NCBI RefSeq assembly: GCF_003019035.1
Contig: NZ_CP027447.1
Strand: one strand, 5' to 3'
DNA: 64,000 nucleotides
Source of the DNA: Escherichia coli
GTDB taxonomy: Bacteria; Pseudomonadota; Gammaproteobacteria; Enterobacterales; Enterobacteriaceae
The notes under the pieces were generated by a model. That model was not told the origin of the DNA. It ran no database searches and was given only the letters and a program-made list of their open reading frames with translations. Numbering within the stretch: the first letter of the stretch is position 1; each line of letters begins with the position of its first letter. Both the position numbers and the translations under genes were made by a program. Positions 31,214 through 37,446 of this stretch are shown here, in pieces.

Positions 31214-31218
31214 TTATT

Positions 31219-31244
31219 GTCAGGCTCTGATCACAGAGCCTGAC
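31219..31244. terminator. Hairpin between convergent marB and the phospho-beta-glucosidase gene
   Basis: 11-bp perfect stem GTCAGGCTCTG / CAGAGCCTGAC; U-tract weak on both strands. Confidence 0.4.
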
Positions 31245-31269
31245 ATCTCCGTAATATCTTCCTGAAGTC

Positions 31270-32709
31270 TCAAATATTTTCGCCATTGTTGGCGATGAGA
31301 TCCCGATACCAGTAAAATGACGCTTTACGTATCCGTTCCAGCGTTCCCTTCCCTTCGTTGTCTTTATCGACATAAATCATTCCGTAGCGCTTTTTCATTT
31401 CCCCTGTTCCGGCAGAAACCAGGTCAATGCAGCCCCACGGTGTGTAGCCAATTAAGTCAACACCATCTTCAACAACGGCTTTTTTCATTTCCCGAATATG
31501 GGAAGCAAAGTAATCAATGCGATAGTGATCGTTCACCGTGCCGTCAGCTTGTCTCTGGTCAACCGCACCAAATCCATTTTCGACAATAAACAGCGGCAAC
31601 TGGAAATGATCCCAGAACCAGTTGAGTGAATAACGTAGCCCTGCCGGATCAATTTGCCATCCCCATTCGGATGTATCGATATAAGGGTTGCTGACCAAAT
31701 CTCGTGGTTCAACATAATTCAGTTGCGGGTTATCTGGCGAAAATTGCGTAGTAAAAGACATGTAGTAGCTAAAGCCGATAAAGTCGACACAACCTCTGGC
31801 AAGAATCGCGTTATCTTCTGGTGTGATATCGAGGTTGAATCCTTTCCTGGCAAAGTAATTCAGCATATGTTGCGGATAATATCCACGAGCATGTACATCA
31901 GTAAACCAGTAACGACGATGCATCGCTTTCGTCGCCATCATCATATCGTTGGGTGCACACGTCAGAGGATAGATGGGGCACATGGCGATCATGCAGCCGA
32001 TATTAAATTCAGGATTGATCGATTTTCCAGTCTGTACCGCCAGGGCACTGGCAACTAACTCGTAATGTACCGCCTGGTACATTATTTGTTCGCGCTCATT
32101 GATATCTTCCTCTGGCGAATACAAAATACCGGAATTAGTAAATGGACACAGGCTTTCGCTGAAATTCACCTGATTATTGATTTCGTTAAACGTCATCCAG
32201 TACTTTACTTTTTCTTTATAGCGCGTGAAGACCGTTGATGCGAAGCGGATGAAAAAGTCGATCAGTTTACGGTGTCGCCAGCCACCATATTTTGTCACCA
32301 GATGATAAGGCATCTCAAAATGCGAAAGCGTCACCACAGGCTGCATTCCCTGCTTCAGGCATTCATCGAACAGATCATCATAAAATTGTAAACCCTCTTC
32401 ATTCGGCTCCTGTTCGTCACCTTGCGGAAAGATTCGTGTCCAGGCAATGGAAGTTCGAAAGCATTTGAATCCCATCTCGGCAAATAACTGAATATCTGTT
32501 TTATAGCGATGATAAAAATCAATTGCTTCATGATTGGGATAATTAAGCCCGTCGATAATGCCTTCTGTCACTTCACGCGGCACCCCGTGAGCGCCAGCAG
32601 TCATCACATCGGCGATACTGATGCCTTTTCCTCCTTCATTCCAGCCACCTTCCAACTGATGCGCGGCTACCGCGCCACCCCATAAAAAACCTTTTTTAAA
32701 TCCTGACAT
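31270..32709 (-). CDS. GH1-family 6-phospho-beta-glucosidase (start at the ATG with AAGGAG Shine-Dalgarno)
   Basis: N-terminal [14 protein letters not shown] motif and ITENG-type nucleophile region (…FIVENGFG…) typical of glycoside hydrolase family 1. Confidence 0.85.
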
Positions 32710-32733
32710 ACACAACTCCTTAACTAAAATAGA

Positions 32734-34801: not shown

Positions 34802-36124
34802 TTATCCGTTAGTTGTTAAGTTATTGACCTTGTTGGCGGCAATAACAAAAGGTAAATAGATCATTGTCGCCACACCTAAACATAAAAAACCCACCAGTAA
34901 CGCCAGCCAGTTTCCCCCGGTTCCGAGGAAAGCAATTAAAGGTCCGGGCGTAGTCCAGGGCACGGCATAAGCAACCGGTGGAATAATTTCCATCGAAACA
35001 AAGAAGTAACCAATGGCACAGTTAACAATAGGAACCATAATAAACGGCACCATCATGATGGGGTTAAGTACAATAGGAAGGCCGAACATTATCGGTTCAT
35101 TGATATTGAAAATACCGGGGATAAATGACATTTTTGCCAGATCACGGTATTCCGCACGCTTAGAAGCGATAAAAATAGCCAACAATAACCCCAACGTCAT
35201 ACCTGAACCGCCGCAGTTGGCGAATGCATCATTAATAGAAGTCCAGGTAATCGGATATGGCGCGCCCCAGGTAGTACCGTGTTGAGCGGCCCAGGAGAGA
35301 TTCTCCAGATTAGCCTCAGAAAAAACGGTTTCTCGAATTGCCGACGTTGTATTAGGTCCGTGGATCCCCAGCACCCAGAGGAAATTACCCACAGCCCCCA
35401 GGATAATTACCGCAAAGATATTCGTTCCCATATGTTTGAGCGGCGTCTGGATTAATGTGTAAATGAGGTCGTTTAATCCTGCCGGGGATATCAGTGTCAG
35501 GCAATAATTAAGTGCGGAAAAGAACACCATGACAAAAAATATTGGCAATAAAACTTTAAATGAACGCGCTACCGCAGGAGGTACAGCTGCCGGCATCGTG
35601 ATGGTGATTTTGGGGTTTCGAGCTAAGCGACAAAATATTTCACTGGTGATCAGTGCAACGATAACAGCAACAAATAACCCCTGCGCGCCGAGATATTTGG
35701 TCGTCAGGAATGCTTGCCCATCTATCATCTGATATGGCGTATATACAATAAAAAATGCTCCTATTGCCGTTAATCCGCATAAAAGATCATCTTGCTCATA
35801 GCTAATCGCCATATTCCTGGCGACCAGGAAAGCAATCATAATTGACATGATATTTACAGAACCATTCATTACCGGAGTAAAAATAGCTTGTGCTTTTTCA
35901 AGGTTGGGGAAAACGCTGTTCAGATGCAGCAGCCCGGCAATAAAGCCGTCGGGCGATAATATGGCAAAGTTAATTAATATAATTAATGAGCTTGCCATGA
36001 TAATTGGAAACGTAAAAACGAATCCATCTCTCACCGCTGCAACATGTTTTTGTGAGTTTAACTTGATAGCAACTGGAACAAGAAAACGTTCCATTCCACG
36101 TTCGAATGAGGCCATTAATCCCAT
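34802..36124 (-). CDS. PTS lactose/cellobiose-family EIIC permease (440 aa)
   Basis: Polytopic membrane protein with IIC-cellobiose architecture. Confidence 0.85.
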   Translation of the reverse strand: MGLMASFERGMERFLVPVAIKLNSQKHVAAVRDGFVFTFPIIMASSLIILINFAILSPDGFIAGLLHLNSVFPNLEKAQAIFTPVMNGSVNIMSIMIAFLVARNMAISYEQDDLLCGLTAIGAFFIVYTPYQMIDGQAFLTTKYLGAQGLFVAVIVALITSEIFCRLARNPKITITMPAAVPPAVARSFKVLLPIFFVMVFFSALNYCLTLISPAGLNDLIYTLIQTPLKHMGTNIFAVIILGAVGNFLWVLGIHGPNTTSAIRETVFSEANLENLSWAAQHGTTWGAPYPITWTSINDAFANCGGSGMTLGLLLAIFIASKRAEYRDLAKMSFIPGIFNINEPIMFGLPIVLNPIMMVPFIMVPIVNCAIGYFFVSMEIIPPVAYAVPWTTPGPLIAFLGTGGNWLALLVGFLCLGVATMIYLPFVIAANKVNNLTTNG

Positions 36125-36237
36125 TTTTTATACCTGTTGTTTTGGATATTTATACATCCCAATAAAGCATGTATGCCATATCCATTTTATGATGTGTGAA
36201 AAGTTAGTTCAGGTAATAGTTTAATAAAATTAGATTC

Positions 36238-36549
36238 TTACTGTTGCAGTAGTTTCATCGCAAATTCAAGAACTGCCTGTCCGTTCATGGTGCCATAGTC
36301 TTTCATCTCGATAACAGCTACAGGCATTTTCCCCTGTGCAACAGCTTCAATCTCTGGTTTCTGAAAGCGAACTTGCGGGCCAAGTAAAACAACGTCAACT
36401 TCGTTATTTTTAATTTTCCCTTTAGCCTCTGCAATCGCCAATGCGGAAATATTAACTTCAAGTGAAATAGCGTTAGCATGATCAATCATACGTTTAACCA
36501 GCATACTGGTTGACATGCCCGCAGCGCAAACTAACAATATCTTTTTCAT
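36238..36549 (-). CDS. PTS lactose/cellobiose-family EIIB component (103 aa)
   Basis: N-terminal MKKILLVCAAGMSTS with phosphorylatable Cys typical of IIB-cellobiose. Confidence 0.85.
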   Translation of the reverse strand: MKKILLVCAAGMSTSMLVKRMIDHANAISLEVNISALAIAEAKGKIKNNEVDVVLLGPQVRFQKPEIEAVAQGKMPVAVIEMKDYGTMNGQAVLEFAMKLLQQ

Positions 36550-36747
36550 ATTTTCCCTTACTGGTATATAACAGATTACATTGTGTAAATATCATATCCC
36601 GCAGTAGCTATACGTCCTGGTACATTGATCACAGTAATACAGCACTAAAGTTGTTCAACATCAGGGTGATAATTAAACGACTCGGCCATAGGATAAACCA
36701 ATCAGGACTCAACTCCTTGTTTTCAATGGCTCTTAAAAGGTGCAAAA

Positions 36748-37446
36748 GTGATTTTTCAAAAGATTGCCCGCTTACTTAAATCCGAGATCAATGGCTATTC
36801 ATGGCATGTTGGTGATTTGTTGCCGTCAGAAGCTGAACTCGCTGTTCGTTATAATGTTTCGCGTAATACCCTGCGTAAGGCATTATCCTTGCTGGAAGGC
36901 GAAGGAATTATTCATAGAAAGCATGGTTCAGGAACATACATTCAAAAAAAGAATTTTGTTGCACACATTGATCACATGAACAGTTTCAGTGAAATTGCGC
37001 ATAAAAGCGGCAAAGAGGCAGGGAGTCAGATTATGAAATTTGAAGTGCAGGATGCTTCTCCCCCTATTGCGACTGAGCTGAATTTAGTGACTGGTGAGCA
37101 GGTTTATTACATAAAGAGACTGCGATTCATTGAGGATAATGCAGCACAATTAGAAGAAACGTGGATGTCAGTGGCACGTTTTCCTGATTTAACCGTAGCA
37201 CATATGCAAAAATCCAAATTTTCGTATATTGAGAACGAATGCGGGATCAAAATCATTGGCACCTTTGAAACTTTCTCCCCGACTTTTCCTACCCCAGAAA
37301 TCGCCAGTATTTTACGGATCAGCCCACGGGATCCCATACTTAAAATTCAGACCCAGGCTGTGGACAGTAACTCTATTCCGCTGGATTATTCGTTACTTTA
37401 CAGCAATATTTTCGAGTTCCAGGTAAAGTACTTTTTCCCGCGATAA
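36748..37446 (+). CDS. GntR/HutC-family transcriptional regulator (GTG start)
   Basis: N-terminal GntR HTH (…LPSEAELAVRYNVSRNTLRKAL…) plus UTRA effector domain; divergent from the PTS operon. Confidence 0.8.
   Translation: MIFQKIARLLKSEINGYSWHVGDLLPSEAELAVRYNVSRNTLRKALSLLEGEGIIHRKHGSGTYIQKKNFVAHIDHMNSFSEIAHKSGKEAGSQIMKFEVQDASPPIATELNLVTGEQVYYIKRLRFIEDNAAQLEETWMSVARFPDLTVAHMQKSKFSYIENECGIKIIGTFETFSPTFPTPEIASILRISPRDPILKIQTQAVDSNSIPLDYSLLYSNIFEFQVKYFFPR

Follow-up and report, generated by a model that had tools for sequence, protein, structure and literature searches.

Gene content of the marB–eamA interval

In the stretch of Escherichia coli DNA analyzed here (64,000 nucleotides, hereafter the window), six intact genes lie between marB (30995–31213, plus strand) and eamA (37491–38390, minus strand), as seen from a check of the open reading frames in the interval 31214–37490. 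Five of them form an operon on the minus strand, for which we use the bgc names that are justified below. The operon comprises bgcE (36238–36549), bgcF (34802–36124), and bgcI (34463–34774), which encode the EIIB (103 residues), the EIIC permease (440 residues), and the EIIA (103 residues) of a phosphotransferase system (PTS) of the lactose/cellobiose family, bgcH (32734–34407), which encodes an outer-membrane sugar porin of 557 residues with a signal peptide and an N-terminal coiled-coil extension, and bgcA (31270–32709), which encodes a GH1 6-phospho-beta-glucosidase of 479 residues. The sixth gene, bgcR (36748–37446, plus strand), is divergent to the operon, has a GTG start, and encodes a regulator of the GntR/HutC subfamily with 232 residues. 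The control region between bgcR and bgcE (36550–36747) has a G+C content of 37%. All six genes were thus found intact at the places given in the first-pass annotation, and its family assignments were upheld by profile matches.

BgcA matched NCBIfam model NF007154 over its full length with 1031 bits at a cut-off of 624, and it aligned with the Streptococcus mutans 6-P-beta-glucosidase (PDB 3PN8/4F66; 800 bits, about 70% identical residues in the alignment) and with E. coli BglA (2XHY; 677 bits). Both catalytic motifs are present, NEIN with Glu176 (motif at 175–176) and ENG with Glu377, the latter of which lines up with the residue replaced by Gln in 4F79, and the phosphate-binding S..K.Y motif is found at residues 432–443. 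The score above the curated cut-off, the catalytic glutamates, and the phosphate-binding motif together characterize BgcA as a GH1 6-phospho-beta-glucosidase, and the best subfamily model was of the 'celA' type. As a sequence search with BgcH against PDB chains gave no match even at E = 10, Pfam and NCBIfam profiles were needed to place this protein. Pfam detected a LamB domain at residues 147–557 (2e-81) and a Sugarporin_N domain at residues 30–56 (2e-6), which are the features of a LamB-family sugar porin with a ScrY-type N-terminal extension; matches to the NCBIfam maltoporin models were below their cut-offs. The sucrose porin ScrY itself likewise has a LamB-family barrel after a periplasmic coiled-coil N-terminal extension (Pfam Sugarporin_N), but it belongs to another operon and serves another substrate.

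BgcF reached 336 bits with TIGR00410, the model for IIC of the lactose/cellobiose family (cut-off 236), and also 336 bits with the cellobiose-specific equivalog TIGR00359, which is below the cut-off of 434. The PTS IIA and IIB models matched BgcI and BgcE below equivalog or subfamily cut-offs, with E-values of 4e-30 to 4e-18 for BgcI and the NCBIfam models of ChbA, EIIA-Lac, and cellobiose EIIA (all under the equivalog cut-offs), and of 1e-24 for BgcE and TIGR00853. BgcI has the phosphorylation motif HAQDH at residue 76, and the sole cysteine of BgcE is residue 8 within MKKILLVCAAGMSTS, the usual phospho-cysteine position; together with the EIIC score, these features assign the system to the lactose/cellobiose PTS family (TC 4.A.3). 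BgcR consists of a GntR domain (residues 4–65, 1e-18) and a UTRA domain (residues 87–218, 9e-30), which corresponds to the winged helix-turn-helix and the C-terminal UTRA of the HutC subfamily of GntR regulators. Gene content and family matches therefore support the initial view that the locus is an accessory module for PTS uptake and hydrolysis of beta-glucosides or aryl-glucosides, which has a porin of its own and a GntR regulator encoded in the opposite direction.

Probable identification as the bgc operon

We identify the locus as the bgc operon bgcE-bgcF-bgcI-bgcH-bgcA with the divergent bgcR, at a probability of about 0.9. Gene content, a citing paper, what is reported of the original description, and the exclusion of other systems make this assignment almost certain. 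In its passage on bgc, which cites Neelakanta 2009, the citing paper describes five genes including separate IIB, IIC, and IIA components and the phospho-beta-glucosidase BgcA, the GntR-type positive regulator BgcR, the substrates cellobiose, arbutin, and salicin, and a low-temperature phenotype (PMC3585215). Gene content, gene order, and regulator type of our locus agree with this description. The original work is that of Neelakanta, Sankar and Schnetz (Appl Environ Microbiol 2009; 75:2284) on bgc of the septicemia strain i484, with which the locus shares the five-gene operon of separate EIIB, EIIC, and EIIA, porin, and phospho-beta-glucosidase, the divergent GntR-type regulator, and the species. 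Reportedly, the fifth bgc gene encodes the porin BgcH, the promoter is CRP-dependent and can be activated by a promoter-up mutation termed bgc*, the operon exists in extraintestinal pathogenic B2 strains and in E. albertii, and homologues occur in Klebsiella, Enterobacter, and Citrobacter. This expected occurrence was indeed found, as strain CFT073, E. albertii, Klebsiella, Enterobacter, and Citrobacter all carry the cluster.

The six-gene finding is thus correct yet almost certainly already known, since bgc was described in E. coli in 2009, and the locus is not an uncharacterized island. The CFT073 copy of the six genes, c1955–c1960, was tabulated in 2010 as a variable cluster, 'PTS system, cellobiose specific', which some strains carry and which K-12 and O157 lack (PMC2831201). 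In the protein collection, the alleles of the window and of CFT073 had only generic names with no 'Bgc' name attached, and neither Sankar et al. 2009 (PLoS Genetics) nor the E. coli W genome paper, both of which cite the bgc authors, gives a bgc map position.

Four beta-glucoside systems are counted in E. coli, namely chb, asc, bgl, and bgc, the last of which is termed cryptic (PMC4488073). We excluded chb, asc, and bgl for this locus because their regulator, enzyme, or PTS types differ from those found here. The chb operon of K-12 (chbBCARFG) resembles the locus in its lactose/cellobiose-family PTS with separate IIB, IIC, and IIA and is also cryptic for cellobiose, but it has the AraC-type regulator ChbR, the GH4 phospho-glucosidase ChbF, and the deacetylase ChbG, and lacks a porin; the locus proteins score far below the Chb equivalog cut-offs. 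The asc system has a LacI-type regulator and a fused IIBC. The bgl operon (bglGFBH) is likewise an aryl-beta-glucoside system with a GH1 phospho-beta-glucosidase and a LamB-family porin (BglH), and it is laboratory-silent and CRP-dependent, as is reported of bgc, but it differs by a fused EIIBCA of the glucose family (BglF), the RNA antiterminator BglG, H-NS silencing, and another chromosomal site. The bgu operon of Streptococcus pneumoniae (regulator BguR) and the gmu operon of Bacillus subtilis (regulator GmuR) resemble the locus in combining a PTS of the lactose/cellobiose family with a GH1 6-phospho-beta-glucosidase and a HutC-type GntR regulator, but they are Gram-positive systems that lack a porin, and their regulators are repressors, in contrast to the activator role reported for BgcR. 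The passage on these systems in PMC3585215 states a high similarity of BguR to BgcR and of the bgu products to the Bgc proteins.

Junctions, distribution, and age of the locus

In K-12 MG1655, the end of marB (1620207) and the start of eamA (1620238) are separated only by a 30-bp hairpin spacer, confirming that the locus is missing from K-12, as had been stated in the first-pass annotation. The segment that differs from K-12 begins with the base after the marB stop codon (31214) and reaches to about 37500, so that it takes in the bgcR/eamA terminator hairpin and the last two eamA codons. Collinearity with K-12 is regained at about 37503 within the last eamA codons, and EamA ends with ...KVRG in the window and with ...KVGS in K-12. 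The left edge of the originally proposed segment 31214–37446 was therefore correct, whereas its right edge lay too far inward.

Both edges are marked by hairpins between convergent genes. The marB/bgcA hairpin at the left edge (31217..31248) has a perfect 12-bp stem, GTCAGGCTCTGA/TCAGAGCCTGAC, with folding energies of -22 to -23 kcal/mol (z -6.6 and -4.4, one per strand), and is a probable bidirectional terminator. It is kept in E. albertii, where the cluster has the same left junction as in the window, while K-12 has a shorter and different hairpin at this position. The bgcR/eamA hairpin at the right edge (37454..37485) has folding energies of -23.3 kcal/mol on the plus strand (z -4.7) and -17.4 kcal/mol on the minus strand (z -3.3).

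A search for the locus detected it in 46% of 5,426 complete E. coli genomes. Carriers include STEC of phylogroup B1 with the serotypes O103:H2, O111:H8, and O91:H21. This distribution is wider than the emphasis of the 2009 title, which was reportedly on septicemic and uropathogenic (B2) strains, and is compatible with better present-day sampling. Uropathogenic CFT073 has the same set of six genes between marB and eamA, with about 2.5% nucleotide divergence from the window allele. The cluster is also found in Citrobacter, Salmonella diarizonae, Klebsiella, Raoultella, Enterobacter, Kluyvera, Cedecea, and others, and is conserved across Enterobacteriaceae. Several of these cluster-bearing genera have a ROK-family sugar kinase linked to the gene of the GH1 enzyme.

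The description of the locus as 'inserted' raises the question of whether it is a mobile genomic island that some E. coli lineages recently acquired by horizontal transfer into the marB–eamA spacer. The G+C content of 42.8%, in comparison to 48–49% in the flanks, and the patchy distribution within the species would agree with this, and an ultimately foreign origin is suggested by the approximately 70% identity of BgcA to the streptococcal enzyme and by an Enterococcus plasmid that matches part of bgcA with 72% nucleotide identity. However, there is no integrase, transposase, or tRNA, a search of the locus boundaries found no flanking direct or inverted repeat, and of the features of a mobile island, only the lower G+C content fits. 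The locus is chromosomal at 2567 of 2572 places, with a median of one and a maximum of three places per genome. A search for plasmid-borne copies gave no genuine one: of the four 'plasmid' matches, two are mislabelled records of chromosome size (4.8–4.9 Mb), and two are non-mobilizable records of 42 kb and 386 kb, which have neighboring accession numbers and are taken to be chromosome pieces. Moreover, E. albertii shares the left junction including the terminator hairpin, and synonymous divergence, both between E. coli lineages and in comparison to E. albertii, resembles that of the flanking core genes. A recent acquisition is therefore largely refuted and, in our estimation, very improbable, and 'inserted' was an overstatement. 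One could also regard the locus as a decaying remnant that has no present function, as the literature calls bgc cryptic (PMC4488073) and damaged copies exist, with IS903B in the porin gene, IS1A in bgcR, ISVsa5 in place of bgcA, or truncated proteins in Shigella. We give almost no credence to this view, which the selection data contradict: all six open reading frames are intact in the window, in CFT073, and in E. albertii, dN/dS ratios of 0.02–0.13 indicate strong purifying selection on all six genes, at least 80% of the locus is present in 2493 of the 2563 genomes that have any part of it, and many genera have kept both the cluster and its promoter blocks. As mobility genes and repeats are absent, the junction is shared with E. 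albertii, and divergence equals that of the flanks, the locus represents an old presence/absence polymorphism on the Escherichia chromosome, which selection maintains in approximately half of E. coli.

Control region, proposed pathway, and possible natural substrate

Promoter conservation was assessed with an alignment of 21 orthologous bgcR/bgcE intergenic regions. A CTGTGAtC block at 36634–36627 is invariant in all of them and overlaps a predicted, palindromic CRP site on the minus strand, TGTGATCAATGTACCA (36618..36633), the left half of which is invariant in 21 of 21 orthologues, while the right half is weak (3 of 5 matches). The center of this site is about 41.5 bp upstream of the predicted transcription start, and its spacing to the -10-like TATGAT at 36596–36591 would fit a class II CRP promoter. 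The window, CFT073, SL112, and E. albertii share an identical core promoter. Blocks beside the bgcR start codon are also conserved, with the GTG start and the ribosome-binding site in all orthologues. In a simple scan for promoters and terminators, sites were no more numerous than in shuffled sequence, and the relevant promoter was missed.

The first-pass annotation had pointed to the bgcR–operon intergenic region (36550–36747) as the place to look for the operator. A candidate BgcR site in this region is a conserved inverted repeat on the minus strand (36653..36678), GTTTA-N16-TGAAC in the window and GTTCA-N16-TGMAC across orthologues, centered 40 bp upstream of the predicted CRP site center. 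Its half-sites are kept across genera, while the 16-nt spacer varies among the 21 orthologues. The repeat is unlike the usual short HutC-type palindrome, and its assignment to BgcR is inferred. The HutC-operator-like palindrome CTGGTATATAACAG (36561–36574) was rejected as a general BgcR site because its conservation is limited to E. coli and E. albertii and does not extend to the other orthologues.

In the pathway that we propose, beta-glucosides would pass the outer membrane via the BgcH porin and would then be imported and phosphorylated at O-6 by the PTS, with the phosphoryl group probably relayed from PEP via EI, HPr, BgcI (His), and BgcE (Cys) to the sugar in BgcF. BgcA would cleave the resulting 6-phospho-beta-glucoside to glucose-6-phosphate and glucose or an aglycone. 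The operon is presumably driven by a weak CRP-dependent promoter that requires BgcR as activator and would therefore be silent under standard laboratory conditions, and activation of the promoter would enable cells to grow on cellobiose, arbutin, and salicin, chiefly at low temperature.

It is possible, albeit doubtful, that the same machinery naturally serves another beta-linked sugar, such as gentiobiose, laminaribiose, sophorose, a glucomannan-derived gluco-mannoside, or a plant glucoside that cells encounter at low temperature when outside the host, and that the use of cellobiose, arbutin, and salicin is a side activity seen only after promoter mutation. The true sugar would then be the effector of BgcR. 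The strong purifying selection implies regular use in nature, and the dedicated porin with its ScrY-type extension, the ROK-family kinase linked to the GH1 gene in several genera, and the B. subtilis relatives GmuR/Gmu, which serve glucomannan breakdown products, also speak for such a substrate. The closest solved enzyme to BgcA was reportedly crystallized with both salicin-6P and gentiobiose-6P, which would count in the same direction. Furthermore, growth of the wild type on the tested sugars requires an activating mutation, and the phenotype is a low-temperature one, according to the bgc passage of PMC3585215 and, reportedly, the 2009 abstract. On the other hand, the EIIC scores equally on the generic and the cellobiose-specific models, the best GH1 model is of the 'celA' type, and nothing points directly to any alternative sugar.

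With the genetic characterization in 2009 and the tabulation in comparative genomics in 2010, the bgc locus leaves little for discovery. What is added here are the genome counts, the E. albertii junction, the absence of repeats, the selection data, the conservation across genera, and the promoter blocks. The remaining interest is ecological, as approximately half of E. coli has retained, under strong purifying selection, a complete beta-glucoside system with its own porin that has been termed cryptic. Rather speculatively, the substrate and BgcR effector may be a plant- or soil-derived beta-linked sugar that is met at low temperature outside the gut; the ancient, selectively maintained marB–eamA polymorphism would then reflect a niche split within E. 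coli, and cellobiose and aryl-glucoside use would be only a laboratory side effect. If so, the carriers would have adapted to secondary habitats other than the host. Genome counts, junctions, and the conserved blocks of the promoter region could help in the search for the natural inducer and for the reason for the activity at low temperature.

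The marB–eamA locus, its proteins and its surroundings

The marB–eamA interval of the window contains six intact open reading frames, as described in the first-pass annotation. Between marB (30995-31213, plus strand) and eamA (37491-38390, minus strand), the minus strand carries the GH1 enzyme gene bgcA (31270-32709), the porin gene bgcH (32734-34407), bgcI for EIIA (34463-34774), bgcF for EIIC (34802-36124), and bgcE for EIIB (36238-36549), and the divergent GntR regulator gene bgcR (36748-37446) is on the plus strand. The same six genes are annotated in RefSeq for E. coli SCU-301, which originates from a rectal swab of a healthy student and is 100% identical to the window. 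In K-12 MG1655, the end of marB (1620207) is followed by the start of eamA at 1620238, which confirms the stated adjacency of the two genes; the gap of 30 bp folds into a single hairpin. The variable segment extends from 31214 to about 37500, has a strong hairpin at both ends, and takes in the final two eamA codons (KVRG in the window versus KVGS in K-12). Its G+C content is 42.8%, compared with 48-49% in the flanks, and is lowest in the control region (37%).

The assignment of the enzyme as a GH1 6-phospho-beta-glucosidase was borne out by the curated NCBIfam model NF007154, which BgcA passes with 1031 bits (cut-off 624). BgcA reached 800 bits against the solved 6-P-beta-glucosidase of Streptococcus mutans (3PN8/4F66), to which about 70% of residues are identical in the alignment as printed; E. 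coli BglA (2XHY) gave 677 bits. Both catalytic glutamates are present, Glu176 in NEIN and Glu377 in ENG, the latter aligned with the residue that is Gln in 4F79 (E375Q mutant), and the 12-residue phosphate-binding stretch is retained. The PTS belongs to the lactose/cellobiose family, as EIIC exceeds the family model TIGR00410 (336 bits, cut-off 236), the sole cysteine of EIIB is residue 8, and EIIA contains the HAQDH motif; among the NCBIfam profiles, EIIC scored below the cut-offs of the substrate-specific equivalogs. In Pfam, the porin has a Sugarporin_N coiled-coil extension (2e-6) followed by a LamB barrel (2e-81), and BgcR has GntR and UTRA domains and therefore belongs to the HutC subfamily. 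A sequence search of PDB chains found no solved chain for the porin. In the protein collection, the 90%-identity cluster with the porin also contains the unrelated GH1 enzyme, probably because the representative sequence is fused or mis-called. The initial description and its functional reading were right.

Several other features of the window are worth recording. An intact gene for an 1806-aa ECSE_1600-family autotransporter (3183-8603, minus strand; RefSeq annotation of SCU-301) lies between lsrK and hipBA and is accessory. The sole Rfam match in the window is the Hfq-binding sRNA STnc560 (39988-40201, minus strand; 282 bits), located between ydeE and dgcZ, where it faces mgtS and mgtT, two genes for small proteins. 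All that is left of ydeJ (2-oxo-tetronate isomerase) is an 81-bp remnant at 41991-42071, and CFT073 has similar remnants of ydeI and ydeJ. Region 47785-64000 contains a Qin-like lambdoid prophage remnant, at whose edge ydfJ is cut short; the remnant includes pinQ (about 50403-50993) and tail genes (51091-64000), many of the latter flagged as frameshifted in RefSeq.

Probable identity with the bgc operon

E. coli has four beta-glucoside systems, namely chb, asc, bgl, and bgc (PMC4488073). The window locus differs from chb, asc, and bgl in regulator, PTS type, and enzyme, and only bgc fits. The bgc operon comprises five genes, including those for separate PTS IIB, IIC, and IIA proteins and the phospho-beta-glucosidase BgcA (PMC3585215). 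In CFT073, c1955-c1960 are listed as 'PTS system, cellobiose specific', a cluster of six genes that UTI89, several B1 strains, HS, and SMS-3-5 also have and that K-12, O157:H7, 536, and Shigella lack (PMC2831201). We found exactly the same six-gene locus between marB and eamA in CFT073. The 2009 work of Neelakanta and colleagues reportedly introduced the names bgcE (IIB), bgcF (IIC), bgcI (IIA), bgcH (porin), and bgcA. The name 'Bgc' was not found on the proteins in the protein collection. Judged by gene content, the literature description, and the exclusion of chb, asc, and bgl, the window locus is very likely the bgc operon. The bgc locus is an already known system and not a new one. The substrate had been considered not obvious; a partial answer has been published, namely that activated mutants use cellobiose, arbutin, and salicin (PMC3585215).

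The bgcR–bgcE control region

The first-pass annotation had proposed a search for the operator between bgcR and bgcE, and an alignment of 21 orthologous intergenic regions yielded candidates. A CTGTGAtC block is invariant in all 21 and in the window is part of TGTGATCAATGTACCA (36633-36618). The -10-like TATGAT at 36596-36591 puts this CRP-like site at about -41.5, a position that would correspond to class II geometry. The 2009 study is said to have found bgc to be CRP-dependent and bgc* mutants to carry one promoter-up nucleotide exchange. Also conserved is a GTTCA-N16-TGMAC inverted repeat (36678-36653 in the window), centered 40 bp further upstream than the CRP-like site, which may serve as a BgcR activator site, as well as the ribosome-binding site and GTG start of bgcR. 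All of these elements are shared without change by the window, CFT073, and E. coli SL112, and E. albertii has nearly identical ones. A HutC-like palindrome at 36561-36574, near the bgcE ribosome-binding site, was not retained because it is specific to Escherichia. An 18-nt inverted repeat (89% complementary) between 35844-35861 within bgcF and 36581-36598 in the predicted -10 region is probably due to chance.

Distribution, age and selection

When only the island was used as query, matches were found in 2563 of 5426 complete E. coli genomes, of which 2493 have at least 80% of the island; the median is one copy per genome. Carriers include B1 STEC serotypes (O103:H2, O111:H8, and O91:H21). Nearly all places were chromosomal (2567 of 2572); the four 'plasmid' matches comprise two records of chromosome size and two that are non-mobilizable and have adjacent accession numbers, the latter pair being taken for pieces of a chromosome. 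In genomes without the island, marB adjoins eamA, and a K-12-like genome (L001) and a distant genome (L036) share the same 30-bp spacer at the empty site. E. coli PS2Canimalfeces12 has lost marB and eamA together with the 5' part of ydeE, and in it a RelE/ParE toxin-antitoxin pair lies between marC and marR.

The core bgcR-bgcE-bgcF-(bgcI)-bgcH occurs at other chromosomal sites in Citrobacter, Salmonella enterica subsp. diarizonae, Kluyvera, Raoultella, Klebsiella, Enterobacter, Cedecea, Buttiauxella, Ewingella, and Erwinia psidii. According to the gene maps (L007-L034), the GH1 gene is upstream of bgcR and not after the porin gene in many of these loci, and several clusters have no EIIA gene. 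In an Enterobacter sp. locus (L011, 2477-4844), the sole one with ORFs listed, a ROK-family kinase gene is beside the GH1 gene. Our distribution agrees with that reportedly described in 2009, according to which bgc is prevalent in phylogroup B2, also occurs in E. albertii, and has homologues in Klebsiella, Enterobacter, Citrobacter, and Gram-positive bacteria.

A recent insertion would be one way to account for an island that K-12 does not have. We rejected it, as in E. albertii the cluster also adjoins marB and the junction has the same terminator hairpin, a search for direct or inverted repeats flanking the segment found none, the ORF listing showed no mobility genes within it, and synonymous divergence resembles that of the flanks. 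Between the window and CFT073, dS was 0.06-0.11 for the six bgc genes and 0.04-0.12 for the flanks; against E. albertii, it was 0.8-1.9 for the five comparable bgc genes (the contig stops within bgcR) and 0.5-1.1 for the flanks. E. albertii NBRC 107761 lacks about 360 bp of marC, opposite window 29266-29626, but its ydeA, marRAB, and bgc cluster follow the order of the window.

The locus could alternatively be a decaying remnant, and damaged copies exist: in SL112 and two genome-search hits (H9 and H67), the variants are ISVsa5 in place of bgcA and the mar side, with the locus now adjoining the autotransporter gene, IS903B within the porin gene, and IS1A within bgcR, and truncated Shigella proteins are among the protein-collection entries. 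Although such IS-disrupted and truncated copies occur, dN/dS of 0.02-0.13 throughout the bgc genes rejects decay. The dN/dS of about 1.6 for marB between the window and CFT073, where all neighbors are below 0.14, concerns a tiny gene with few changes and may be noise. Distribution, junctions, dS, dN/dS, and G+C content taken together, the bgc locus is not a recent arrival: it is ultimately foreign DNA that has been at the marB–eamA site since before the split of E. coli and E. albertii, and it segregates with an empty allele, with selection preserving it where present.
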